NCBI GenBank assembly: GCA_047615735.1
Contig: JBLHHU010000001.1
Coordinates: forward strand, 1-52,203
DNA: 52,203 nucleotides
Reading direction: 5' to 3'
Source: Kiritimatiellia bacterium
GTDB taxonomy: Bacteria > Verrucomicrobiota > Kiritimatiellia > UBA8416 > JAIOPI01
The notes under the pieces are model-generated. The model did no database searches. It saw only the letters and a list, made by a program, of their open reading frames with translations, and had not been told where the DNA came from. Of this stretch, positions 556 through 16,334 are shown piece after piece; position 1 is the first letter of the stretch, and every line of letters begins with the position of its first letter. A program made the position numbers and the translations under genes.

Positions 556-3500
556 ATGAAAATGACATCCAAGCAGTTTGTTTTTTGGCTAATTATGTAC
601 ACGTTGACTATGGGGGGTGGGGCGGTTATGTCTGCCTTTGCCGTTGCGCCCCCGCTCACCGAAGCGTTCTTTGCGGAAACCCTTCCTAGTGGGGCCCACT
701 GGGTCACTACCTCGTCACCTGAGGGGCGAATCGACATCGCTTACGATGATACTGATTCTACAACCCAGCTCGTTCCGCTCTCTATGCCTTCGCCTTCGAG
801 TCAGACAACTGCGGATCTCCACCGGGGGAATTATTACGCGTGCACTACCTCCGGCTCTTTGGTTTCGCAAGGAATTCATCTGGATCGGACCAATGCGGTG
901 AACGTCACTTTTTTCATGTATGAAAGTTCAACAGAAAATGGAACTTATACACTCTTGTCCTCCATCGCGGTAGTTGCGAGTATCGGGACTGGAATCGTAC
1001 AGTCGGCAGCGCTGAACATTCCAATGGTCAGCGGTAAATATTATTTACTCGGGGCTGCATGGGATGCCTCCGCCACCTATTATTACAAAGGGAACTTCCA
1101 CCCCCAGACGATGCCATTGGGTGACACGGTCGGGGGATACACGCTCAGTAGCGCGGCCGCGCCCGCGGCATCACTCGTTGGAAGTCCTTCTACGACGGCG
1201 TATCAACAGGAGGTCACGGTCTCGACCAATCGCGTGGTTCGAATGGACGATACAACCGCTGGGTCATTGACCTCGACCAATCAAATGGACCTGCTTCTGA
1301 ATCTCGAGGATTATACCGATGTGTCGCTAGAATTTCGTCATCGCCAATTAGGAGATGAAGTGCATGCGGGCGACGGCATTTTCTTGAGCGATGACGCCAC
1401 CACGTTCACGCGGGTGTACGATCTGGACTCGGCATCACCGGCCTGGCGGGACATCACGCTGGACCTCGACGCACTGGCCTCGAGCAATGGGCTCGCATTA
1501 ACGTCACAGAGTATCATTCGCTTCCAGCAGGTCGACGATGACGGCTGGCCGTCGGACGGACGGGAGTTCGACGACATTCTCGTTTATTCCGAGCCGGATC
1601 TGTTGTCGGACTCTGTGACATCAGGAGGTTCCTCTTCGATTAAAAAAACCTGGCGCGGATTTTCTTCTGCCAAAACGATTGCATTGAAGCATGACGTCAC
1701 CACCCGCACCGGAATCAGTGCGTTTTCCGAACCCTCGCTGGGATTCGGCTATCGGCTGAAGGATTCAGGCGGAATCGTTCGGCATTCGCAACTCAGCAGT
1801 ACCGCCTGGAACGTGGATGCCATGACGGTTCAAGCCGATACGCGCTTTCCGACGATGGCCATCCCTGGGGCCACCACGTTGCGCGGCCTTAACTATACCC
1901 TTCATGCAACGATCGACCCACAGACAAATGTAACCGAAGCACTGGAAAACAACAACGAAGCCATCATGGACGTGATGGTCAACCACTATTCGGGGTCGCT
2001 CTGGTTCGACAACATTGAGACCCCGATCCTCATCACCGATTGGGGTGTCCGTGTAGCCAATTCGCCCGTCGAGCACTGGATCACTGGAACCGGTTCGCTC
2101 GATGGCGAGGCCTTTGTCTTTGCCAATCTGAAGGTGGAGAAGACCCTGACCTCCCTCGACTACAGCCTTGCTGCAACTGATGCGACGATCATCAATGTAC
2201 CCATTTCGAGGCGCGACGTAGTTAACCGTGTCCATTTTTGGTATAATGGGGGGATTAATCTAAAACATCAGGGAGCCTATGCCGACATCAAGGTCTTGCT
2301 GCCTGCAGGGCTGGGGATTAGTACCACCTCGGCTACAGTGTTGGACCCGACGTATGTGTTCAGCAACCAGAAGCTTTCGCCGACGTTATATCCCTCTAAC
2401 ACGGTTACGAATGTGGGGACGTTTAATGTCGCGGAAGAAACTAAACCGCTACTCTACGACGTGGCAGACATAACATGGGATCCCACTGCGGGAACGTTCT
2501 CATTCGCTAAAACGGATGTAGTATTCGTGCGTGAACAAGAACTGGCGCATATGGAAGCCGAGGCCGCCAACTTCACGAACACGGTGGTGCAGGTGAAAAA
2601 ATCCAACGCGGCGTACTACCGAGGCGTGAGCTCTCTGGAAACGGATCCGCTCGTTGAGGTCGGCTTGAATGGCCAGGCCTTGTTAAGTACGCAGGTCAAG
2701 ATCGACTCAACCGAGATGACCGCTCATTTTCCCTACGGTGTGAGACAAGCGTGGAGCAACGGTTCGGTCTTCGTTATCTCTCAGGACCTGGTGAATAGCG
2801 CCTTGAGCCAGATGGACAGTCCCGCGGATATCGATGTTTTGTATGCCAGCGATTGTAACGAGGTGCTGGACTGTGCCGGAACCGTTGGCCCTATCAATAT
2901 CCCGACTCAGCCGAGCGGACATACCATCGCCAGCATGGATGGCGGGCTACGCACGCAGGTGAGCATCCCTGTCGGAGATGGCGATCTACAGTGGGGCACA
3001 CGTTGGGACAACTCGCCAACCCACACAACCGATGCGTTCGGTACCGGTGCGTTCTATATGCCCGGACACTTTATTCGCGGCGACCTTTCGTCATTCGATG
3101 TCACCGAAAATCGCGGCCCTTCCGAGATTCTGCTGAGCGGGATGCCCTCGAATCTAGCGCCGGCCATGGAGCGTCCGGGCTTAGCCAGCTACGCGGATGG
3201 CCTGGCGGACTATGCCGGGCTCAACTTGCGCGTGGGCTCCGATGGCGCATTGAACGGCGATTCCGTGCTTGGCGGATCCTCGCCGGGCGGGTGGCCACTC
3301 ACAGGGCGCTCGAAATACTACACCCGTCATTCCGGCGTGAGCGGCATCCATGAGGCGGTCTTTGGCCAATTCCCAACGCCCATAACCGTTTATGGCTATA
3401 ATTTCGATGTGTCTAATTTTGGTTTGTCTTACTTGTCCGGAACCCCTGAGGAGTCGCGCTTTAATGCTTCGGTGGATCTTCCGCAACCATCCGATATCAC

Positions 3501-6285
3501 GCTGGCTTTCGAAGAGCTGATGCTCGATTGCCTGGGCGAAATCGGAGACGCCGAACTGGCAAACAATGATTCTAAGAATCTGGCGTATTGGGATGCGGAT
3601 ATTCAGCCGCTGACCCTCTTTTTTGCCTCAACCGCCAGTAGCACTTGTACCAATTCTAATCGCAAGCTCTGCATGGGCTTGACGACGCACTGCGCGAATG
3701 TGGACCAAACGCTATCCGGAATTCTGGCCTTTCTCCCGGATGGCGATCTCGGCTCACCGGCCGATCAGATCGACGGTGTGCCTTCCCGGTTGGCCGTGCC
3801 CAACCGAATCGAACTGGCCGGTCCCGCGGACGAGACCTACTATTTCAATCCTGTTGCCATGCCGTATTACAACGACTATTCGCTCAGTGGCGATGCGCTG
3901 ACCGACCGCGGATGGATTAACTTCGCGGGCAACCTCGATGTCGCCTTTTTCAGCGACCTGCAAGTACAGTTTCACACCAGCGCCAGTACGAACAGCGCCA
4001 TTGCCAATATTTATATGATGGGCGGTTGGGAAAGTGCCGCGCAAACGTTTTTCAATAGTGATCCCGACGACTTTGATACCGAGAATGCAGGCTTCCCATC
4101 CGCGTCCCTAGCAAGCTATGGCGACTACCGTTCCCCGAGCAGCGACACCTATCGAACCCATGCTCTCCGAACGTGGCTGGGCGTGGTGGATTTCGACTAC
4201 CCCCTGGAATGGTCCTCTGCCTCCAAATCGTTCAAGTCTCCGGAGGAAGTGCATGTCGACCTGATGGTGATGAATGTCGAGCACCAGACCGATTACCTCA
4301 GCGCGGAGAATGCCGAAATCTCCTTCGGCGTGCAGTACGATGGACTACCGCAGGTCAACCTTGCCAACATGGCGTTTAATGCAATTGATGAAGCCACAGG
4401 CATGGCTTCCGCGTTTGGCGATGCTGTCGGCGATGCGGTCCGTGACACCATTGATTCCGGTGTCTCAGCCTTGGATGATACCCTCGCCGATGTGCCGGAA
4501 ATGCTGTTTGATCCGTTGTTTGAGAAAGTACTCGATCCTGTGATTGATGATTTCTACGAGATGCTGAACAACGCTTATATCGCAACGCCGGGTTCCAACT
4601 ATTACAGCACTGTGGTGACCCAATATATTCACGGGATAATCGGAGACCCCTACGGAAACGTGGATCACATCCTCAAGAACCTCGCCAACGGAACGGGTAT
4701 GGCCTCGGATATCGCCGATGAAATCGATGGTAATCTGGAACAGGTTGAAGCCCTTTTGAATGCCTTTGTCGGTATTGTTTCAGAAACAAACGGCGTCGCG
4801 CTTCCTGCTGCGCTTCCCGGTCTGCTCAATGTAGATGGTGGCGATTACGATGTTCTTGTGGATCTAGGGGTTGGCCTGCTCTCCGTGCTGGCGGACACGC
4901 TCTACGATTCTCTTAGCAGCACGATTGAAGCGGAACTCAACGGCGTTCTTTCTGAAGCGGCTCCGAGTTTAGAGGCGATTAGCGATATCATGCAGGAACT
5001 GCTTGTGGTTGTGGGTGATGTGCGAACCAGTCTGGCGGCGGCGGGATCCATGCTCGAGGAACTGGATGATATTCTTAATACCACGGCGTTGAACGACCCC
5101 CTTGGAGAACTCTCCCGCGAAATCGACCAATGGTTCGCCGCGCTGCCGACGGATGGCGCGACGTTTGATGAATATACGGCAGATGAGATCAAGCAGATGC
5201 TCCGGCAGAAAATCACAGATACCTTTTATGCCTCGGTTCCTTGTGCCGAGGTGCAGCAGGTGGTGCGCTCGCAGCTCTACGAAGTGGATGCCGCCATTCA
5301 GGAAACCATCGATAGCGCCTTCCAGCAGTTGAACAAAGCGCTGCGCGATATCGCTAGCGAATACTTGAACGGGATCGATGATTCGATAAACGATATGCTG
5401 GGCGATTTATCGAATATTATGGGTGCCGGACAGATCGACGGTTATGCGCATATTCGCCACGACACCCTCACGGAGCTACGCCTGGATGGCAAGTTCCAAT
5501 GGGAAGTTCCGGACGCGATGGAATTCAATGCCTATCTCATCATTAAGCAACTCGACTCTGATGCCGCCGGCGGTTGCGGCGTGGTGGGCGAAGTGTTGCC
5601 GGAAGTTACCGTTGGGACCGAAGGCTTCGGTATCTCCTGGCTGGAATCCAGCATCAAGGCCGACATCGCGGCCAAGTTCGCCTTCATGGTCGACGCCCAT
5701 GGCACGGTCGAACTGATCGGTCTGGCAGGATCGTTCGAATTGGTTGAAGGCGAAATTGGCTTTGACTCCTTTGGGATCACTGAATTCTATGCCGCGGTCG
5801 CACTGGGCCAACTGGAAAACTATCTTTCCGCGAACCTGCGCTGTTCCTTCACCAGCTATGAGGTCGAAGGAGGTGCCTTCTTCGGTAAAGCGTGCTCTCT
5901 CGATCCTTTCTCTTGGGATCCGGATGTACAGAGCGTCTTAGGCGACCCGCCTTTCACCGGGGTCTATGTCTATGGGGAAGGGTGGATGCCGATCGTCGAC
6001 TTCGGCTGCCTCTTCCAGGTGAAGGCTGGCGTGGGTGCGGGCATTTTTGCCTTCGTTGATGGACCGGTTGGCGGGAAAATCTTCCTTGGCGTGGAGGGTG
6101 AAGCGCTTTGTGTGGTCGGGGTTGCTGGCGAGGTTACTTTGGTGGGCCTGAAAGATGGAGATGATATGCGCATGACCGGCAAAGGGCGAATTTCCGGCCG
6201 TGTAGGCGCATGCCCATTTTGCGTCAAGTTTGGCAAAACGGTGACTCTCACCTATGACAATGGAAACTGGGACGCCGATTATTAA
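556..6285 (+). CDS. Giant secreted protein 1 (1909 aa), function unknown
   Basis: Uninterrupted 5.7-kb ORF with GAGG 5 nt upstream of the ATG. Signal-like N-terminus (FVFWLIMYTLTMGGGAVMSAFA). Long acidic helical stretch and a Gly/Val/Cys-rich C-terminus. No catalytic motif recognised. Confidence 0.85.
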   Translation: MKMTSKQFVFWLIMYTLTMGGGAVMSAFAVAPPLTEAFFAETLPSGAHWVTTSSPEGRIDIAYDDTDSTTQLVPLSMPSPSSQTTADLHRGNYYACTTSGSLVSQGIHLDRTNAVNVTFFMYESSTENGTYTLLSSIAVVASIGTGIVQSAALNIPMVSGKYYLLGAAWDASATYYYKGNFHPQTMPLGDTVGGYTLSSAAAPAASLVGSPSTTAYQQEVTVSTNRVVRMDDTTAGSLTSTNQMDLLLNLEDYTDVSLEFRHRQLGDEVHAGDGIFLSDDATTFTRVYDLDSASPAWRDITLDLDALASSNGLALTSQSIIRFQQVDDDGWPSDGREFDDILVYSEPDLLSDSVTSGGSSSIKKTWRGFSSAKTIALKHDVTTRTGISAFSEPSLGFGYRLKDSGGIVRHSQLSSTAWNVDAMTVQADTRFPTMAIPGATTLRGLNYTLHATIDPQTNVTEALENNNEAIMDVMVNHYSGSLWFDNIETPILITDWGVRVANSPVEHWITGTGSLDGEAFVFANLKVEKTLTSLDYSLAATDATIINVPISRRDVVNRVHFWYNGGINLKHQGAYADIKVLLPAGLGISTTSATVLDPTYVFSNQKLSPTLYPSNTVTNVGTFNVAEETKPLLYDVADITWDPTAGTFSFAKTDVVFVREQELAHMEAEAANFTNTVVQVKKSNAAYYRGVSSLETDPLVEVGLNGQALLSTQVKIDSTEMTAHFPYGVRQAWSNGSVFVISQDLVNSALSQMDSPADIDVLYASDCNEVLDCAGTVGPINIPTQPSGHTIASMDGGLRTQVSIPVGDGDLQWGTRWDNSPTHTTDAFGTGAFYMPGHFIRGDLSSFDVTENRGPSEILLSGMPSNLAPAMERPGLASYADGLADYAGLNLRVGSDGALNGDSVLGGSSPGGWPLTGRSKYYTRHSGVSGIHEAVFGQFPTPITVYGYNFDVSNFGLSYLSGTPEESRFNASVDLPQPSDITLAFEELMLDCLGEIGDAELANNDSKNLAYWDADIQPLTLFFASTASSTCTNSNRKLCMGLTTHCANVDQTLSGILAFLPDGDLGSPADQIDGVPSRLAVPNRIELAGPADETYYFNPVAMPYYNDYSLSGDALTDRGWINFAGNLDVAFFSDLQVQFHTSASTNSAIANIYMMGGWESAAQTFFNSDPDDFDTENAGFPSASLASYGDYRSPSSDTYRTHALRTWLGVVDFDYPLEWSSASKSFKSPEEVHVDLMVMNVEHQTDYLSAENAEISFGVQYDGLPQVNLANMAFNAIDEATGMASAFGDAVGDAVRDTIDSGVSALDDTLADVPEMLFDPLFEKVLDPVIDDFYEMLNNAYIATPGSNYYSTVVTQYIHGIIGDPYGNVDHILKNLANGTGMASDIADEIDGNLEQVEALLNAFVGIVSETNGVALPAALPGLLNVDGGDYDVLVDLGVGLLSVLADTLYDSLSSTIEAELNGVLSEAAPSLEAISDIMQELLVVVGDVRTSLAAAGSMLEELDDILNTTALNDPLGELSREIDQWFAALPTDGATFDEYTADEIKQMLRQKITDTFYASVPCAEVQQVVRSQLYEVDAAIQETIDSAFQQLNKALRDIASEYLNGIDDSINDMLGDLSNIMGAGQIDGYAHIRHDTLTELRLDGKFQWEVPDAMEFNAYLIIKQLDSDAAGGCGVVGEVLPEVTVGTEGFGISWLESSIKADIAAKFAFMVDAHGTVELIGLAGSFELVEGEIGFDSFGITEFYAAVALGQLENYLSANLRCSFTSYEVEGGAFFGKACSLDPFSWDPDVQSVLGDPPFTGVYVYGEGWMPIVDFGCLFQVKAGVGAGIFAFVDGPVGGKIFLGVEGEALCVVGVAGEVTLVGLKDGDDMRMTGKGRISGRVGACPFCVKFGKTVTLTYDNGNWDADY

Positions 6286-6304
6286 GATTCAACGAGAGAG
6301 AACT

Positions 6305-9300
6305 ATGATGAATTTGAATCCGAAGTGGATCATTGTCTGCGCGGCACTGGCTCTGGTGCAACCGTTGGCAGAGGCGCAGGACCAGGGCATAGGCGACATG
6401 ATGTTCACCGCCGGAACGGTGGCAACCGGTGCCGTGGGGGATGAATGGGGGTGGGTTCAGTGGATGGCCACGGATAGCTCGCTGCTCAAGGATCGTGCCA
6501 TGGATCTCTACATGAAGGATGGTCACATGCCTTCCACAAACCTATTTTCACTGAAGGGCGTGGCTCGTCAGGTCACCGATCCGCGAACGATCAGCCTGTT
6601 ATTGAGCCGCGGTGAAGCCCTCGGCGATGATTTGAGTATGTTGGAAATGTCGGTGGACTCGCTTTATGCCGGGGCGGAGCCCGTTGGTTCACTTTCGTTG
6701 GCAGAAAAGCTGGCCGCTCTAATCAGCGGTTCGCAGGACGATCCCGAGCTTTATCGGAATCTGGTATTGATGGGCCGTTCCCATTCGTCCGTCGCCATGA
6801 CGATTGGCCATGGTTTTTTCGCCCGAATTCCTTCGAGCGGATTTTCCACATTCGAAATTCGCGACCACGATACGAATGAAGTGATTGGCCGAGTGGTGTT
6901 GGAGGGTGGTGTGCCGATAGTACTCCCTGCTCCGGGCCCGATTGTGCTTGTCCCCGAAACAAGTCCCAAGGGAAATCTGAATATTCGCCTGCGCTGGGAT
7001 ATTCCCGACACGCTCAAGCGTGCTTCACTGCTTCAGTTCGGCTACAACCTCTATCGTATGGATCAGGACTTTGCTGGCGGTTTGGGCTTCGACACCACGC
7101 CGCCGACCGCCACCGAAATAGGGGGCTTGGTCTCCAATAATACGGAGGTAGTTCAGGTCAATCGCATGCCGATTTTGGTTGATGAAAATGCCCCCTGGTT
7201 TGCCGTGGATGATAACGAAGGGCTTTCCGGCGGAACGCCCTTTGAGGATGGAACGAACTACTACTATTTTGTCTCCGCGCTTGATCTGCTCGGGCGCGAC
7301 GGGGATCTTTCGGACGGATTCCAAACCTTCCCGTGCGACCGTTTCGCACCATCGGTTCCCTATGATGTGCGCACGCGCACCATTTCCGGTTATTCGAGCG
7401 GAACCAATACGCAATGGGTCGAGGTTTCGTGGGCGCATAATACCAATGACGCCGATACGGCGGGCTATTATGTCTACCGCCATACCAGCATGGCTGATAT
7501 GCAGAGCAACGCGGTCTCGGACGTCGCCAACCGCATCGCGGGTCCGATCAGTGTAACCAATGCCGTCCGAATGTATTATGAAGACCATTCGTTGACCTCC
7601 AATGACTGGAGTCGAACCTATTGGTATACCGTCCGCGCAGAAGATGACGCCAGTTGCGGCAGTAACCTTTCAGGCAATAGCGCCCCGGCCTATGGGCTCC
7701 TTAGAGACTGGGAAGGGCCACCTCTGGCCACCGGGGTCGTGGTGACCATTCAGGGCGAGATCCCCGAGACGACGTACCATTCAACCATTCCGCTGGGATC
7801 GCCAGATCCAGAGAATATCCGAATCATTTGCCAGCTAAAAAATCCAGGCCTTCCGATCGCCTGGGCACAGTTTGGTTGGCACGGCGGTGTCTATGGCGGC
7901 GCTGGGTCCGAAACGAATATCTATACATCCAGCAAGTTCTATTTTTCAGAGGGCATCGACAAGGTGGGAAAAGACGCTCTTATAAACACCCCGCCGGGTC
8001 AGAATGAAAGCTGGTTCACTTTCTACTGCCGCGTCGGTAGTTACGGTGGAGCGGTTAGCGAGTGGGCGCATTTTTCTGATGTTCCATCGGATAGCGTCAA
8101 ACGAAAATATACGTTTGAGGGCGATATTCGATTGGATGCAATTCTGATTCCAGGCGGGGCAACGGGGACGCTAGCGGGGCCCCATATCTGGGGCCCGGGA
8201 CCCACCAACATCAACCCGGTTTTGACCATTCCTGCAGTTGTTGGCGCCGAGACCGTGCGCGTCTACCGACGGGTGGATAATGGGCCTCGTACCTTAATTC
8301 ACCAAGGGGAGATGGATGAAATCCTGGGCGCCGTCATTACGGATTATACGGGCGGTTCAGTGAATGGCGGAAGCATTTGCTACTACTACCAGTTGTTCGA
8401 CGTACATGGAAATGCGGGGCCGATGGTGAATATTGGTTGTATCGCGATTGCTCCGCGAGTTGACCTGCCCACCCCCTTCCTTGAATCCATCGATTCAACT
8501 GGCACGGCGGTCTTATCGCCGGGCTTGGGTTTAGAATGGTTCTGTACCACGCCGGGTGTCGAACGTTTCGAAGTGGCTGTTGCATTGGATGAAAATGGAC
8601 CACCATCCACCTTTGGAACGCCGGGGTACGCGCTCGATGGGCTGGCCAATGATCTCGACGTGGTCGTTGAAGGGGTCACCAATACCTTGGACTTTGGTTT
8701 TTATCGTACCGGTCGTGTGGGCACGACGTTTGGCGTGGCAGGTTCGCCGCTGTTCTCGCTCAATAGCCTCGTTAGCTTGAATCGAAACTACACCGTCATG
8801 GTCCGCGCCATTGGTGTAGCCGGGACGCTGGGCCCATGGAGCAATGTTGAATCGTTCCGGTGGAATACCGTTCCGACCCTCGGGCCAGAAGTGCCGTGGC
8901 CAGCTCGGCCGATGCCGACCATTCAGTCTACCAAATTCCATGCCGATATGGAGGCGGTCTTCATTGATGGAAGCTATGTCTATAGCAATGGAATCGATCA
9001 TGTAGGAATCCGCATTGGCGAAATTCCTTCGAATAATAATGATGTGAATGAAATTGATCGCTTCGAACTTGAGCTTTATTACGTTGGCAATCCCATGGAC
9101 TACCTCTATGGCAACGCGGTGATGACCAACCAAACCGTTTTCCCCTGCGTACTTTATCGCTACCAATTGACGAACGACTTGTATCAGGCGGTGAGCGGTG
9201 ATGTAGCGCAGGTGTCGCCGTTGATGGAGGATATCGCCTACGCCGTCAATGGTGTCGTTGCCACCGTGTATGATCCATTCATTGGGATTAACAAAAAAGA

Positions 9301-9448
9301 GAACGAGGATCCGTCGTGGGGGATCTACCTGATTGATACGCAACCCGTGGTGCGTGGTGCACGCTATCAATATTTGCTAATGCGCTTTGATCAACAGACC
9401 AAGGAGCTGGATCGTGTTATTTCAGCTGGAACGGTCACAATTCCATAA
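6305..9448 (+). CDS. Giant secreted protein 2 (1047 aa) with FN3/Ig-like repeats, function unknown
   Basis: The ORF track opens at 6254, but the ATG at 6305 precedes a typical signal peptide (MMNLNPKWIIVCAALALVQPLAEAQ) and lies 19 nt after the upstream stop. FN3-like signatures are WVEVSW..YYVYR..YWYTVRAED and NYTVMVRAIG..GPWSN. Confidence 0.85.
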   Translation: MMNLNPKWIIVCAALALVQPLAEAQDQGIGDMMFTAGTVATGAVGDEWGWVQWMATDSSLLKDRAMDLYMKDGHMPSTNLFSLKGVARQVTDPRTISLLLSRGEALGDDLSMLEMSVDSLYAGAEPVGSLSLAEKLAALISGSQDDPELYRNLVLMGRSHSSVAMTIGHGFFARIPSSGFSTFEIRDHDTNEVIGRVVLEGGVPIVLPAPGPIVLVPETSPKGNLNIRLRWDIPDTLKRASLLQFGYNLYRMDQDFAGGLGFDTTPPTATEIGGLVSNNTEVVQVNRMPILVDENAPWFAVDDNEGLSGGTPFEDGTNYYYFVSALDLLGRDGDLSDGFQTFPCDRFAPSVPYDVRTRTISGYSSGTNTQWVEVSWAHNTNDADTAGYYVYRHTSMADMQSNAVSDVANRIAGPISVTNAVRMYYEDHSLTSNDWSRTYWYTVRAEDDASCGSNLSGNSAPAYGLLRDWEGPPLATGVVVTIQGEIPETTYHSTIPLGSPDPENIRIICQLKNPGLPIAWAQFGWHGGVYGGAGSETNIYTSSKFYFSEGIDKVGKDALINTPPGQNESWFTFYCRVGSYGGAVSEWAHFSDVPSDSVKRKYTFEGDIRLDAILIPGGATGTLAGPHIWGPGPTNINPVLTIPAVVGAETVRVYRRVDNGPRTLIHQGEMDEILGAVITDYTGGSVNGGSICYYYQLFDVHGNAGPMVNIGCIAIAPRVDLPTPFLESIDSTGTAVLSPGLGLEWFCTTPGVERFEVAVALDENGPPSTFGTPGYALDGLANDLDVVVEGVTNTLDFGFYRTGRVGTTFGVAGSPLFSLNSLVSLNRNYTVMVRAIGVAGTLGPWSNVESFRWNTVPTLGPEVPWPARPMPTIQSTKFHADMEAVFIDGSYVYSNGIDHVGIRIGEIPSNNNDVNEIDRFELELYYVGNPMDYLYGNAVMTNQTVFPCVLYRYQLTNDLYQAVSGDVAQVSPLMEDIAYAVNGVVATVYDPFIGINKKENEDPSWGIYLIDTQPVVRGARYQYLLMRFDQQTKELDRVISAGTVTIP

Positions 9449-9469
9449 TTTAAGAGTGGAGATCCTGTG

Positions 9470-12400
9470 ATGAAAAAAATATTCCTTTTGCTGCTTTTCT
9501 GCGGGGTACTTGGCTCTCACGCAGATTTTGTCTATCGATCCGGGACGTCGTTTCTGACGACGGGTGACCTGGATGGCGACGGGCGTTCGGATCTGGTGCT
9601 GGTGGACGGCTTAAACGCCACCGTGCGCGTTGGCTACCAACTTTCCGCCACGAACCTGACGTGGGCGGCTGCCCGCCCACTTGGTTTGGCTGAAGTGACG
9701 GACATAAACTGTGGGTCGGTTAAGTCTAACGCGTACGACTCGATCATTGCCACCGCTCCTACGCTCAACCGACTGAACATGTATAATGCAGGGTCCGCGA
9801 ACACGATCCTTTCCCCCGAAGCAATTTATATGAATGGAACGGGCCCGTATTCGCTGGCTACGCTGGATATCGGCGGGGTGGGGAATACCGCCCAGGATGA
9901 TATTGTTATCATCACCACGCTCAACGGAAGTAGCCCACACAAGATGGAATACATCCGCTCGCAAGGGACGTCGTTTAGCTCGCTGGGGAAGGTGGGAATT
10001 GGGTCGGCTTGGTGGCACCTTAATGCAATCGAATATGCGTTAGGGATAGAAGGGTTGGCGGTGGTCGATGCCCTTTCTTCTGGATTTCTTCGCATCTATG
10101 ATTTTTCTTCGGGTTCATACAGCAACAAGGCCTCCGTTTCTACGTCAGGGATCACTCAACCCCATTATGTTTCATTCCTATTGCCGTCGGGCGAAGCCCA
10201 TTTTGTACTTTGGGAAAAGGGAAGCTCCACCATTCGAACGACCACGCTAAAGAACGCAGGGGCCATCTATTCCTTTTCCTCGCTGTCGGACTACGACCTG
10301 CTCACCCCCGTGGATTCCATATTCCTCGTGCAAGGTGACGGAACGAACCGGCTCGCGGTGGTTTATTCGGGGGGATCCTCCGTGGGAATTTTTGATCACG
10401 ATGGCTCCGGTGCACCCATTTCCTTGCAAACCCTGGTCACGTTGCCGGGCGAACGGTTTGCCGGATTTCTTCCCCTCGATACCGATAACTTCATGGCACT
10501 CTCCTCTGGTTCCGGTGATCTGTCCGGTAGCATCACCGCCGATCAGCATCACTTTGCCGGCGGGCTATTTTCATCCGTTGGAACTGTTGCGCTTCCCGCC
10601 CCACCGCCCGGAGGAGGAGCGGCTAACGTGATGACCTTTGTCGGCGAACCTTTGGTCGACAGCGCGCCGCAACGACTGCAACTTCTACGGGCAGGGGACT
10701 GGTCGACCGCAGTGACGCTCGGCGTCGGGGTGCAGGCCACTTATGAAACGGATCGCGGCTGGGAGCAAGGTTTGGGGGACCCAACGGTTGGAGATCTAGG
10801 CTCCCCCGCGACGAATGCAGCCTATACACTCGACAACCAGTTTCATCGTGCAATTTCCATCCACAGCTTTGATGCCGCCCGCGGAGAAGAGGTCGCGGTG
10901 ATTCAAATTTCGCCCGATCCTGGGACCTATGGAACGTCGGTAGAGGTCTCTCTTTCGGCCACCCCAGCGTCCACACTGTATTATCGCCTGGATGCGTCCA
11001 GCGGCTGGAGCATCTACGCCGCTCCCTTTACAATTTTTGCCGATGTCAATGTACAGTACTATGCCCTTTCGGGGGCAAAGAATTCGATCATCCGATCCGC
11101 CGCCTATCGATTCAGCGATGCACCTTCCGATCTGGACTCCGATGGCGACGGCATTCCGGACTATGTTGAACTGGCCAACGGGCTCGACCCCGCTGAAAGC
11201 GGTCTTGATTCCGACGGTGACGGCTATTCGGACCTCGACGAATTATTGGCCGGAAGTTCCCCGACGAATGTCGCCGCAATTCCTCTCAGCAGCAATCGTG
11301 TTGAACGCGCCGCGGTCTACGATCAAGTCCTCACTCCGCGCGCCTACGACGGTATTGCCGATACCACCAAGAACAGTGCAATTGGGACGCAGGTTCGCCT
11401 CTTTTCTGCATCCGGCGCGCAGGTTGGATATGCCGAAACGACGAATCTCACCATCGCCGTAGCAAGCACCAATCCGGCCGCCATTTTTGAGGCCGTCGCG
11501 TTGTCGCTCGAGCCGCCATTCACCACAGCGCTTACTGAAACCCGTTTTGATGTCGACGGCACCTTTTCTGGCAATCAGTACGGCATTGAATTGCTCGGAA
11601 TTTATTTGCAGCCGGATCCCGATGCGATCAGCGTGGACTACGCCTATCAAGGCGGCGTGCTTGCCACGGAGGCCAGCGCTTGGTTGGCCGCCGCGCAGGA
11701 CGTCTACACCAACCAGGTACGAACCGTCCAAGTGGCCGACCTCAGCCTGACCAATACGGTCGCCGCCATGTTGGTGGAGCGCAAGCTCGCCAACCTGCTG
11801 CTGGACCGAGGCACGCTCACGAATGGATGGGTATCATTGTTTAAAGGCCGGCCGGGCGACGCCGCCATGCAAGGGCTGTCTTCGTCCGATATCCAATCGC
11901 TTGAAAACATAGGCTCCGGCAGCGAGCCCGCCTATCTCGTCCCGTCACTTGTCTTATCCATCTTCCAAGAGGTGCCTGCGTTGGCCGAACTGCTGGAACT
12001 CACACAGGATATCTACGACCTCCGTAGCGATTACGGTAGCGTCTCTAATAATGTCGGAAAATATCCATTGCCGGTCGATGTGCTGCGTTCGTTTCTCTAT
12101 ACGGGCGATGTGCACTCCAACTATCTAGCGCATGCCTCGATCAGTCCTGCCGAGGTGTCCCTTGCCTACGCTGAAGCCACCCAAACGCTCGCGCAAGTAA
12201 CGGCCCGACCGGTTGGTAGTTTTACGTTGCTCGTACGCTCAAACTCGTTTACGTCTACCTGCCCGGTGCTTTACACGCTCGGTGGAACCGCCAAGAGCCT
12301 CTATGTCGATTCCGGTAACGCGTTCCGCTTCCCGCTGACCTTTACCCTCCAGCCGGGTGCGGAAGTGAGTGTCGATGCGTTCACCGATCGGGATTGGAAT

Positions 12401-12856
12401 CTCTGCCCGGGTACCGACCCGCTGGAGGTCATTTCACTCGCGCTCACGGCAGTCCCGACGGCCTCCGGAATCGATGCGGATGGCAACTTGTTGCCGGACG
12501 CGTATGAAGAAATGTTTCTCGTCGGTAGTGGTGGGTTGGCGACCTCTGACCTCGACGGCGACGGGTGGAGCGATCTTCAGGAATATCTCGACGAAACCGA
12601 TCCCGACGATGCAACGCTACATGGCGTAGTCATAGCCGATCTCAGCCCGCCGGTCATTTCGCTAGACAGTTCCGACTTGTTGATCGATTGGCCGGAAGCC
12701 TATGCCGCTGATTTTATTTTTACCGTTGAGTACACCGAGGCCCTCAATTCGGATCCCTTTGTGGCAGATCAGGAACTGCCCATCGGCGACCTCGGCGTCA
12801 CACTCGACCTTGCCGCCGGCAAAAGCTTTTATCGCGTCATGATCCGCCTGCGGTAG
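9470..12856 (+). CDS. Giant secreted protein 3 (1128 aa) with FG-GAP/VCBS-like, Ig-like and thrombospondin-type-3-like Ca-binding repeats
   Basis: GGAG at 9458-9461 lies 8 nt before the ATG at 9470 (GTG at 9467 is an alternative start). Signal peptide MKKIFLLLLFCGVLGSHA. Motifs: DLDGDGRSDLVLVDG; ISPDPGTYGTSVEVSL..LYYRLD; DSDGDGIPDY; DSDGDGYSDLDE; DLDGDGWSDLQEY. Confidence 0.85.
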   Translation: MKKIFLLLLFCGVLGSHADFVYRSGTSFLTTGDLDGDGRSDLVLVDGLNATVRVGYQLSATNLTWAAARPLGLAEVTDINCGSVKSNAYDSIIATAPTLNRLNMYNAGSANTILSPEAIYMNGTGPYSLATLDIGGVGNTAQDDIVIITTLNGSSPHKMEYIRSQGTSFSSLGKVGIGSAWWHLNAIEYALGIEGLAVVDALSSGFLRIYDFSSGSYSNKASVSTSGITQPHYVSFLLPSGEAHFVLWEKGSSTIRTTTLKNAGAIYSFSSLSDYDLLTPVDSIFLVQGDGTNRLAVVYSGGSSVGIFDHDGSGAPISLQTLVTLPGERFAGFLPLDTDNFMALSSGSGDLSGSITADQHHFAGGLFSSVGTVALPAPPPGGGAANVMTFVGEPLVDSAPQRLQLLRAGDWSTAVTLGVGVQATYETDRGWEQGLGDPTVGDLGSPATNAAYTLDNQFHRAISIHSFDAARGEEVAVIQISPDPGTYGTSVEVSLSATPASTLYYRLDASSGWSIYAAPFTIFADVNVQYYALSGAKNSIIRSAAYRFSDAPSDLDSDGDGIPDYVELANGLDPAESGLDSDGDGYSDLDELLAGSSPTNVAAIPLSSNRVERAAVYDQVLTPRAYDGIADTTKNSAIGTQVRLFSASGAQVGYAETTNLTIAVASTNPAAIFEAVALSLEPPFTTALTETRFDVDGTFSGNQYGIELLGIYLQPDPDAISVDYAYQGGVLATEASAWLAAAQDVYTNQVRTVQVADLSLTNTVAAMLVERKLANLLLDRGTLTNGWVSLFKGRPGDAAMQGLSSSDIQSLENIGSGSEPAYLVPSLVLSIFQEVPALAELLELTQDIYDLRSDYGSVSNNVGKYPLPVDVLRSFLYTGDVHSNYLAHASISPAEVSLAYAEATQTLAQVTARPVGSFTLLVRSNSFTSTCPVLYTLGGTAKSLYVDSGNAFRFPLTFTLQPGAEVSVDAFTDRDWNLCPGTDPLEVISLALTAVPTASGIDADGNLLPDAYEEMFLVGSGGLATSDLDGDGWSDLQEYLDETDPDDATLHGVVIADLSPPVISLDSSDLLIDWPEAYAADFIFTVEYTEALNSDPFVADQELPIGDLGVTLDLAAGKSFYRVMIRLR

Positions 12857-13183: not shown

Positions 13184-13534
13184 GGGACAGACCCGAATGC
13201 CGCTAACTTAAGCCATTCGCGCATGGTGACTACGGCACTGTTAAGAATTTTACAGAAGGTCGCAAAGGACACGAAGGAAAGAACCCTCCTTCGCGCTCCG
13301 CGCTACGGCGGGCAAGCCGGCGGAGCCCAGCCTGCCACGGCGTAGCCGCGAAGCGCGAAGACGGGCCGAGCTCCAATATTGGAGCGCTTGACCCTGTCCC
13401 TGCTATTCCGCTTGGAGTCCGGTGGGCCCCGCCGGCAGCAGTGCTTGAGCCTTTGCGTCCATCGCGACCTTCTGTAAATCGTATTAGAATTTGACGCTGG
13501 AACCCCTTAAGTTAGCGCCATTCTGGTCTGTCCC
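13184..13534. repeat. Complete copy (B) of a ~350-bp nested palindromic interspersed element
   Basis: Outer arms 13184-13212 and 13506-13534 are complementary at 27/29. Inner arms 13248-13276 and 13450-13479 are about 26/29. A perfect 16-bp palindrome GCTCCAATATTGGAGC sits at 13370-13385. The right half (13400-13534) repeats window positions 1-134. Confidence 0.85.
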
Positions 13535-13561: not shown

Positions 13562-14372
13562 TCACGGGTACAGCGCCGGATGCACCAGCTCGACGAAGTG
13601 TTGAGAATGTCGAACCCTGACCCTAATCGTCGTCGAAAGCCCCTGGTGGAGCCGGTGTCCATCGGCGTAATGTTTCGGGTAGATGTTCTCGTACTTTACC
13701 GACCACCAAAGCCTCTCAATAAATACGTTATCCAAGGCGCGGCCTCGGCCATCCATGCTGATTGGGATCTCACGTCCAAGCAGTTCTCCTGTGAACTCAC
13801 CGCTTGTGAACTGGGAGCCCTGATCTGAATTGAATATCTCCGGGCGGCTGTGGCACAGAGCTGCGAGCAGCGCCTGAATGCAAAACGAAGAGTCCATTGT
13901 GTTCGAGAGCTGCCAAGACAAGACATAGCGGCTGTACCACTCGATGACCGCAGCCAGATACATGTAGCCTTTCTTCATCGGCACGTATGTGATGTCGATA
14001 CTCCAAACCTGATTCACCCGCTCAATCTCCACATTACGCAGCAAATACGGGTATATCTTGTGCCCGGGGGCTGGCTTGCTGGTGTGAGGGCCAGGTGTGA
14101 GGGCCTGTATCCCCATCACGCGCATTAGCCGCTCAATGCGCTTGTGGTTCGCCATGTGCCCTTGGTCATGCAACCCAGTCCGTCATGCGCGGAGAACCGT
14201 ATTCAGGGCGCTTCAGGTACTGCTCATCGTTGAGGCGCATCAGCAACAGATCCTCGGGGTTCACCGGAACCGGGTTGTACTGTGCCGTGGAACGCGGGAT
14301 GCCTGCCAGTTGACATTGCCGACGCAGTGAGATCTGGTGGTCTTCCACGACCCAACTACGGCGCGTCGTCAA
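13562..14372 (-). pseudogene. IS3-family transposase OrfB (DDE/rve integrase), frame broken near 14166-14175
   Basis: The N-terminal piece ends ..RPEYGSPRMTDWVA-stop (stop at 14166-14168). The sequence continues in another frame as (L)HDQGHMANHKRIERLMR. DDE-type motifs present: WSIDITYV, FNSDQGSQFTS, ERLWWSVKYE. One single-base indel would restore a contiguous OrfB. Confidence 0.75.
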
Positions 14373-16240: not shown

Positions 16241-16334
16241 TTAAGAATTTCACAGAAGGGCGCGAAGGCCGGAAAGTCAAGACAGACGAGGAAGGCTGCC
16301 CTTTGCGTACTTCGCGACCTTCTGTAAATGATTT
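16241..16334. repeat. Short palindromic copy (C) of the TTCTGTAAAT/ATTTACAGAA repeat family; candidate bidirectional terminator between convergent genes
   Basis: The left arm TTAAGAATTTCACAGAAGGGCGCGAAGG pairs with the right arm containing the 30-mer CCTTTGCGTACTTCGCGACCTTCTGTAAAT (16300-16329). Sits between the M20 stop (16238) and the mutS stop (16334). Confidence 0.75.

Follow-up and report, generated by a model that had tools for sequence, protein, structure and literature searches.

Three Large Co-directional Genes Encode Exported Proteins

The contig JBLHHU010000001.1 of a metagenome-assembled Kiritimatiellia bacterium carries near its start three large genes on the forward strand, whose products we refer to as P1, P2, and P3. 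The window that we analyzed is this complete contig of 52,203 bp. The P1 gene (556–6285, ATG start) encodes 1909 residues, the P2 gene (6305–9448, ATG start) 1047 residues, and the P3 gene (9470–12856, with a start at either ATG 9470 or GTG 9467) 1128 residues; the products are deposited as MFT5239044-46, each named “hypothetical protein”. The longest frame of the second open reading frame (ORF) begins at 6254, and we set the P2 start at ATG 6305 because the N-termini of its homologs (e.g., MMNLNPKW.. and MRKLNQKW..) agree with that position. The intergenic gaps are 19 nt between P1 and P2 and 21 nt between P2 and P3, and purine-rich sites resembling Shine-Dalgarno (SD) sequences precede the two downstream genes (GAGAGAG ahead of 6305 and GGAG ahead of 9467/9470). 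The direction of the genes and both gaps are exactly as described in an earlier reading of this DNA from its letters and ORFs (hereafter, the original prediction). The three are not chance ORFs, as each has dozens to hundreds of full-length homologs, and comparison of the P1, P2, and P3 families by hhalign found them to be mutually unrelated.

Each of the three proteins begins with a positively charged n-region and a hydrophobic h-region followed by an A-x-A-type cleavage site, which we read from the sequence as ..SAFA|VAPP in P1, ..LAEA|QDQG in P2, and ..GSHA|DFVY in P3. The h-region recurs in most homologs (24 of 26 for P1, 99 of 118 for P2, and 22 of 26 for P3), so that the signal-like N-termini noted in the original prediction are borne out. 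There is no lipobox in P1, P2, or P3, nor are there transmembrane helices beyond the signal peptides. By these features all three proteins are predicted to be exported across the inner membrane by the Sec/signal peptidase I route. The term “secreted” used in the original prediction thus holds for this first step, and the final location of the proteins (periplasm, outer membrane, or surface) can be inferred only. All three are strongly acidic, with net charges of −157 (P1), −55 (P2), and −79 (P3).

The Three Genes Form a Conserved, Self-contained Cassette

To examine synteny we scanned one genome per species of the Genome Taxonomy Database (GTDB) with patterns derived from P2, fetched the best 80 loci, and compared the window's three proteins by BLAST with all ORFs of those loci. 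A relative was found in at least 176 species genomes, a number that is a lower bound owing to the pattern-based scan. Of the best 80 loci, 71 are labeled Kiritimatiellota or Verrucomicrobiota, among them Limisphaerales, Pedosphaera, Opitutales, Puniceicoccaceae, Coraliomargaritaceae, Verrucomicrobiaceae, and Akkermansiaceae. The remaining nine comprise one unlabeled metagenome chromosome and eight contigs from metagenome-assembled genomes (MAGs) that bear other taxonomic labels and may represent binning errors. Cultured carriers of the cassette exist, namely Pontiella agarivorans, Oceanipulchritudo coccoides, and the Pontiellaceae/Kiritimatiellota isolates B1224, B12219, and B1221.

The order of the three genes is conserved almost without exception. 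The triad P1-P2-P3 is present in that order in 56 of the 57 loci with enough flanking sequence; taken pairwise, the gene directly upstream of P2 is P1 in 60 of the 61 loci that extend far enough, and the gene directly downstream is P3 in 64 of 65. The exceptions are an artefact of ORF merging and one locus in which a gene for a 2124-residue surface-type protein stands between P1 and P2. The latter (L008, positions 1423–7797, from a Pontiellaceae MAG) encodes an InlB B-repeat-like Flg_new_2 domain and is the sole clear break of the triad. In the neighborhoods of five distant homologs, too, the three large genes stand together in unchanged order amid unrelated surroundings, and the spacing between them runs from an overlap of 4 nt up to 34 nt. 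In at least seven cases, two or three loci come from one genome. The synteny survey proposed with the original prediction therefore came out in its favor, in Kiritimatiellota and in many orders of Verrucomicrobiota.

Some of the distant loci show local variation. A 372-residue gene lies between P1 and P2 in L004 (8886–10004); in L006 (GCA_964423555.1, 13633–23636) P3 is enlarged to 1744 residues and followed by a HEAT-repeat protein and then by a protein of more than 1600 residues; and in L053 a P1 homolog immediately follows P3, suggesting tandem cassettes.

Clustering of all flanking ORFs from the ~80 loci identified no recurrent neighbor, the best being a LuxR/GerE-type regulator in six loci. 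Secretins, chaperones, regulators, and immunity genes were considered as conserved accessory genes and rejected, as nothing among the flanking ORFs was recurrent. We therefore consider the cassette to be self-contained. Its relatives were not found on plasmids or phages. The three genes thus constitute an obligatorily linked unit that is restricted to two sister phyla and has paralogous copies in several genomes.

The individual proteins differ in the reach of their detected homologs. For P1, ~26 full-length homologs with 25–96% identity were found, all from Kiritimatiellales/Pontiellaceae-type sources, and for P3, 26 close homologs; P2 has at least 132, extending to Puniceicoccales/Oceanipulchritudo. 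An exhaustive HMMER search with the last 1200 residues of P1 retrieved 617 clusters (at 50% identity) at E ≤ 1e-3, 392 of them at E ≤ 1e-30. In the full-length matches this region forms the C-terminus of a protein of ~1750–2100 residues, occasionally longer.

P1 Has a Variable Head and a Conserved Core

P1 can be divided into a Sec signal peptide (residues 1–29, nt 556–642, read from the sequence), a variable N-terminal head (residues 30–476, nt 643–1983), a conserved β-rich core (residues 477–1265, nt 1984–4350), an acidic helical bundle (residues 1270–1615, nt 4363–5400), and a C-terminal Cys/Gly-rich antiparallel β-meander (residues 1620–1909, nt 5413–6282). The core is supported by conservation and, for residues 710–1265, by an AlphaFold2 (AF2) model; the helical bundle by its long, low-confidence AF2 helices; and the meander by AF2 and coevolution.

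The head is the least conserved part of the family. Column identity is 12–35% over the first ~450 residues of P1 vs. 40–70% in the core, and BLAST alignments to Verrucomicrobiota homologs begin only at residues ~390–630. Within the head, the jelly-roll-like segment ending in ..FDDILVYS that the original prediction had pointed out (residues ~220–345, nt 1213–1590) proved to be a real module, being 37–45% identical to a module that stands in three tandem copies in P0027, a Bacteroidota-type protein with Sortilin/BNR and type IX secretion system (T9SS) C-terminal sorting domains. As P0027 is T9SS-sorted, it is expected to be a surface or secreted protein. The module has no Pfam family, and it is a candidate for a new family of carbohydrate- or ligand-binding modules. 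A CARDB-like Ig module (residues 418–476) was matched weakly, and other family members carry LamG, MAM, HYR, beta-helix, or He_PIG domains at the head position.

The AF2 model of P1 covers residues 710–1909 and was built from a 26-sequence alignment, with a mean predicted local distance difference test score (pLDDT) of 68. Residues 710–1265 are β-rich and were mostly modeled at pLDDT 80–90. The helical segment that follows has a net charge of −51 in P1 and is negative in every family member. The C-terminal region is modeled as ~16 long, amphipathic, antiparallel strands (pLDDT 50–75). A mean-field direct coupling analysis (mfDCA) of 243 P1 C-terminal domains (188 effective sequences) confirmed the up-and-down meander, as coevolution was found for every one of the 14 pairs of consecutive strands, with scores of 12.5–29 vs. 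9.2 ± 1.3 for non-neighboring pairs. The scores of strand 1 with strands 15/16 were at background (8.0–9.6), so that a closed monomeric 16-strand barrel is unsupported. Six cysteines (C1674, C1780, C1818, C1852, C1886, and C1889) are near-invariant in 72 sequences from both phyla, the last two within a CPFC (CxxC) motif, C1886-P-F-C1889, at nt 6211–6222. These residues could be paired in disulfides or could build a metal or redox site. The P1 tail ends with a conserved W-D-[VA]-D-[FY] motif.

The C-terminal domain of P1, together with those of 10 diverse homologs, had no Pfam match even at E ≤ 10, and for the core as a whole (~1400 residues) there was no convincing relative in Pfam, NCBIfam, or PDB sequences or by Foldseek. 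In a Foldseek search of residues 710–1909 against the PDB, the single match below 1e-3 was ApoB100 (E = 2.3e-5, probability 0.82), followed by lipovitellin, honeybee vitellogenin, the ApoB β-barrel, weak outer-membrane barrels, GFP, and BAR domains, with TM-scores of at most 0.31; the same search against BFVD yielded nothing. Profile matches of P1 to PDB sequences were confined to the helical segment (coiled coils, Cry6Aa, ZorA, and apolipoproteins) and we read them as compositional rather than as homology.

Three further observations relate to the P1 gene. An R-G-D sequence at residues 841–843 (nt 3076–3084) lies within a motif conserved in Kiritimatiellales, YMPGHFIRGD, and P3 has integrin-α-like FG-GAP motifs; the RGD is probably coincidental, because only its G-D is kept in the wider family. 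ARAGORN called a tRNA-Gln(CTG) inside the P1 coding sequence (5678–5754, forward strand), a probable false positive given that Rfam has no tRNA there at the gathering threshold. In the 5′ leader, ~160 nt upstream of the P1 start codon, a tandem 12-mer CCGAAAGGTAAG is present in ~4 copies at 345–395.

P2 Is Modeled as a Rod and P3 Has Calcium-binding Repeats

P2 consists of the signal peptide (residues 1–24), an α/β domain with a helical insert (~30–215), and a series of FN3/Ig-like β-sandwiches (~227–1045). No Pfam or NCBIfam family matches P2. Its AF2 model, from a 64-sequence alignment, has a mean pLDDT of 87, and in Foldseek it matched, at E values from 1e-13 to 1e-6, titin/MyBP-C, gp130, the leptin receptor, and the MG domains of α2-macroglobulin, as well as mastigoneme, the GhpA grappling hook, and a bacterial large adhesin. 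The FN3-like signatures seen in the original prediction are accordingly FN3/Ig sandwiches in the model. As modeled, P2 is a generic FN3/Ig rod without an enzymatic domain.

The N-terminal region of P3 (residues 19–430, nt 9524–10759) has weak matches to the Pfam families FG-GAP and FG-GAP_3, an FG-GAP calcium motif (DLDGDGRSD) at residues 33–41, and weak internal repeats of ~50 residues detected by profile self-alignment; by sequence, it is a probable β-propeller. It is followed by a CHB_HEX_C_1 Ig-like module (residues 482–539, nt 10913–11086; E = 2.5e-6, 27.8 bits vs. the Pfam cut-off of 22) and by a first block of TSP3 calcium repeats (residues ~551–600, nt 11120–11269) with DLDSDGDG and DSDGDG motifs, the columns of which are invariant in the P3 alignment. 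The central domain or domains (residues ~610–1000, nt 11297–12469) are conserved, and these ~400 residues had no Pfam or PDB-profile match. P3 ends with a second TSP3 block (~1002–1045, with DLDGDG at residue 1027) and a C-terminal β domain (together nt 12473–12853), with a conserved F-[YF]-R-[LV] motif a few residues before the end. Of the three kinds of module that the original prediction had listed for P3, the CHB_HEX_C module is thus above its cut-off and FG-GAP is weak, and TSP3_bac is below its cut-off in this P3 and found in 20 of the 23 aligned P3 sequences.

The Flanks of the Cassette

The original prediction had also described the locus as bracketed by a direct repeat and an IS3 element. 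Both are real. The repeat is 134 nt long, with copies at 1–134 and 13400–13533 that are 90% identical, and the IS3-type transposase fragment lies at 13562–14173 on the reverse strand, with an rve core and the end of HTH_21. The transposase ORF is probably decayed and not active, because it has only 203 residues and the last ~28 residues of HTH_21. Comparison of the repeat with the window identified partial copies at ~13190–13265 (two inverted ones, directly before the second full copy) and at ~16310–16330 (short, direct). These extra copies make the repeat look dispersed, similar to repetitive extragenic palindromes (REPs) or miniature inverted-repeat transposable elements (MITEs), and not simply the ends of an IS3 element. 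The contig starts inside one repeat copy, which probably explains the break in the assembly. The cassette sits in different neighborhoods in different genomes, and we therefore consider the bracket of repeat and IS3 fragment incidental. That the cassette is the cargo of a mobile element was rejected, as no relatives turned up on plasmids or phages and the cassette follows the lineage by inheritance.

The genes downstream are of the housekeeping kind expected from the original prediction (an M20 peptidase, MutS, an rRNA adenine dimethylase, and a peptidyl-prolyl isomerase), and beyond them are two rRNA methylases, an aminotransferase, a GH95 enzyme, an NPCBM/GDSL protein, and a sulfatase. The last three, a fucosidase-type enzyme in the case of GH95, are encoded on the reverse strand toward the far end of the contig (36694–39129, 46329–49244, and 49314–51536, respectively) and are not adjacent to the cassette. 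Such a set is typical of the sulfated-polysaccharide lifestyle of Kiritimatiellales.

A Proposed Function and Its Alternatives

Short gaps with SD-like sites, an order of genes that is kept in nearly all informative loci, and the lack of any other recurrent gene lead us to regard P1, P2, and P3 as one functional unit. The make-up of the proteins is of an extracytoplasmic, binding type, because the FN3/Ig sandwiches of P2 resemble those of receptor ectodomains and adhesin rods, P3 has CHB_HEX_C, TSP3_bac, and FG-GAP modules, all three proteins are acidic, and P1 has in its C-terminal domain conserved cysteines suggestive of disulfides. A variable head on a constant scaffold is suggested for P1 by the poor conservation of the head, the different head domains of other family members, the module shared with a T9SS-sorted protein, and the occurrence of two to three paralogous cassettes in several genomes. 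We propose, tentatively and as the best of the readings that we weighed, that the three proteins form a calcium-dependent, envelope-associated binding complex. The three genes would share one transcript, probably with coupled translation, and their products would leave the cytoplasm by Sec and then assemble into one non-enzymatic, calcium-stabilized envelope complex, most likely on or attached to the outer surface, that binds something outside the cell, be it a polymer, a particle, or another cell. In such a complex the lineage-variable lectin/jelly-roll head of P1 would bind the ligand and be presented on the conserved scaffold, with the disulfide-rich amphipathic β-meander as an attachment or assembly module; P2 would be a rigid FN3/Ig rod or spacer; and P3, with its integrin-α-like propeller and TSP3 calcium repeats, would bridge the partners or bind ligand. 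That the three proteins form a complex, that it lies at the surface and depends on calcium, and that it serves in binding are all inferred.

Several points weigh against this proposal. The physical interaction of the three proteins is deduced from synteny only. No route over the outer membrane was found for the proteins, so the complex could equally be periplasmic. The idea that the P1 C-terminus is an outer-membrane anchor fits the strand pattern, amphipathicity, and terminal aromatic residue of the meander, whereas coevolution gave no sign of barrel closure and six conserved cysteines would be unusual for such a barrel, so that the anchor is no more than a possibility. The helical and C-terminal parts of P1 were modeled at low confidence (pLDDT 40–75). 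Finally, as the P1 core has no recognizable relative, a catalytic or transport role is possible somewhere within those ~1400 residues.

Three other explanations were weighed against the binding complex. That no outer-membrane secretion signal was found in the cassette would suit a periplasmic or inter-membrane structural or lipid-handling complex, in which P1 would be a lipid-transfer-like protein (with sheets of the vitellogenin/ApoB or AsmA/TamB type) and P2 and P3 its scaffolds. The Foldseek ranking of ApoB100, lipovitellin, and vitellogenin for P1 points in the same direction, as do the matches of a broad P1 profile to apolipoproteins A-I, A-IV, and E and apolipophorin-III in the helical domain (E ~4e-3 to 6e-2) and the long amphipathic meander, for which evidence of closure is lacking. 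On inspection, however, the ApoB/vitellogenin matches have TM-scores of 0.05–0.12 and root-mean-square deviations (rmsd) of 38–57 Å (0.12 and 57 Å for ApoB100), no Vitellogenin_N, AsmA, MCE, or other large lipid transfer protein signal was found in Pfam, and we rejected homology; with so low a TM-score and so high an rmsd, what is matched is an order of secondary-structure types and not a superposable fold. The apolipoprotein matches are those typically produced by the composition of long helices, and the P1 helical domain is acidic in every member, unlike lipid-binding class-A helices. A variable head, TSP3 repeats, FG-GAP motifs, and multiple paralogs also suit ligand binding better than housekeeping lipid transport, and we judge the lipid-handling explanation unlikely. 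The same acidity, together with the calcium-binding motifs, Sec export, large size, and non-enzymatic Ig/FN3 and β-rich make-up of the proteins and their wide conservation within two related phyla, could instead indicate a surface coat, an S-layer-like layer, or a fiber-forming assembly with a role in envelope architecture over ligand binding. Yet the divergent copies within a genome and the variable P1 head point to diversified specificity, the cassette is clearly not universal, judging by the number of species genomes matched, although that number is a lower bound, and searches for SLH or another known anchoring domain of S-layers came up empty; this we hold to be quite unlikely.

Three large co-encoded subunits with multiple paralogs per genome are also reminiscent of a secreted multi-component toxin or antagonism complex, with P1 contributing a receptor-binding head and a membrane-inserting module and P2 and P3 acting as delivery or binding partners. 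The P1 head is variable and of receptor-binding type (LamG, MAM, and Toxin_R_bind_N occur in single members), its helical domain has a weak profile match to the ClyA-type toxin Cry6Aa (E = 5e-4), and there were weak Foldseek matches to leukocidin and gasdermin. The probability of the latter two matches is at most 0.08, however, and no RHS/YD, SpvB, TcA, MACPF, aerolysin, or toxin-effector domain was found. No immunity-like small gene recurs beside the cassette, PADLOC and PHROGs gave nothing, and the core is highly conserved in both phyla and lacks the hypervariable C-terminal tips that polymorphic toxins typically have. All three proteins furthermore have Sec signal peptides, unlike Tc subunits, and we consider a toxin very improbable. 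The share of probability left over goes to some other function, and the P1 core has room for an activity that escaped recognition.

Among the major degraders of complex and of sulfated polysaccharides, whether in the ocean, in soil, or in the gut, are Verrucomicrobiota and Kiritimatiellota, and the biology of their envelopes is poorly known. That two phyla have preserved ~12 kb of coding sequence undisrupted and in order, sometimes in multiple copies, implies that it must do something important. We see some possibility, albeit a doubtful one, that the cassette is an undescribed envelope or surface apparatus specific to Verrucomicrobiota and Kiritimatiellota and that the P1 core is a new protein architecture. 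Should the P1 core represent a new fold or assembly principle, the known surface and envelope machineries of bacteria would gain a new class; one possibility is that such an apparatus is the missing non-SusCD machinery for capture or uptake of large glycans by these polysaccharide specialists, or a bacterial analog of large lipid-binding proteins. Now that the cassette has been delimited and its domains mapped, with a variable head set apart from a conserved core, and that cultured carriers are known, the question is directly testable.

Comparison with Known Systems

Searches with all three proteins of Pfam, NCBIfam, PHROGs, PADLOC, and PDB sequences, by single sequence and by profile, returned generic modules only and no characterized system, and literature searches turned up no account of a cassette of this kind in Verrucomicrobiota or Kiritimatiellota and no relevant expression evidence. 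Within the ~4,100 residues there was no catalytic, ATPase, or transporter domain in Pfam or NCBIfam, and the only PHROG match, of 19 bits, lay on the TSP3 motif. With regard to sorting signals of the T9SS, PEP-CTERM, LPXTG, and type I secretion (T1SS)-RTX types, there were no matches to Por_Secre_tail, PEP-CTERM, Gram_pos_anchor, or HemolysinCabind; the C-termini of the cassette proteins are conserved but different. The absence of catalytic, ATPase, transporter, and sorting motifs, as read in the original prediction, therefore stands in these libraries; the profile searches and the Foldseek searches of the two AF2 models that it had called for led to no characterized system, and its central claim of an uncharacterized operon for three exported proteins with no assignable function is supported by the synteny and by these null searches.

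The cassette shares with the Tc toxins (TcA/TcB/TcC) the arrangement of three huge proteins in a row, one with a β-propeller and one with helical and β receptor-binding parts. An assignment to the Tc (ABC) complex was rejected, as RHS/YD, SpvB, VRP1, TcdA_TcdB_pore, and TcA/TcB domains are lacking in P1, P2, P3, and their homologs. No Tc chain was among the top 50 Foldseek matches listed, and Tc subunits are without signal peptides, whereas P1, P2, P3, and most of their homologs have cleavable ones. The similarity of P1 to type V secretion is one of layout: a signal peptide, a large N-terminal “passenger”, a helical segment, and an antiparallel β domain of next-neighbor strands that ends in an aromatic residue. 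Unlike type V proteins, P1 has six conserved cysteines and ~16 predicted strands vs. the 12-strand barrel of type Va. P1 had no Pfam match to Autotransporter (PF03797), ShlB, or POTRA even at E ≤ 10, and its Foldseek TM-scores against outer-membrane barrels were at most 0.31. Bacterial α2-macroglobulin is matched by P2 via generic MG/FN3-like sandwiches (TM ~0.1), and no A2M Pfam domains, a thioester domain included, were found. Like the large lipid transfer proteins (ApoB100, vitellogenin/lipovitellin), P1 has a β-rich region followed by a helical region and an amphipathic β-sheet; it differs from them in being bacterial and Sec-exported and in having an acidic helical domain.

For P3, the combination of TSP3 repeats with integrin-α-like FG-GAP motifs is also found in Myxococcus, in the gliding-motility lipoprotein CglD and the cell-cohesion protein MtsD. 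P3 has neither a VWA domain nor a lipobox, and its genomic partners are different. Membership in either family was rejected, since the scores were 31.3 bits vs. a required 800 for MtsD (NF047639) and 15.9 vs. 400 for CglD (NF033765) and the matches covered only 36–49 residues of the P3 TSP3 block. The Amuc_1099 pilus-like family (NF042425) was likewise rejected (30 bits vs. 50), as its 36-residue match (P3 1023–1058) was to the Asp-rich TSP3-like motif only.

The FN3/Ig large adhesins (the ice-binding/RTX “large adhesion proteins” and GhpA) offer a comparison for more than one of the proteins. The P2 model matches their tandem β-sandwich rods (6xi3, 9fls), P1 has a variable jelly-roll/lectin-type head, and the cassette proteins are acidic with calcium-binding motifs. 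The adhesins differ in being single giant polypeptides that are exported by T1SS or T9SS with RTX or C-terminal domain signals, whereas the cassette encodes three separate proteins with Sec signals and its P1 core is without counterpart. As a whole, then, the cassette matches no characterized system, and its parts resemble those of modular FN3/Ig adhesins and of TSP3/integrin-like envelope proteins.

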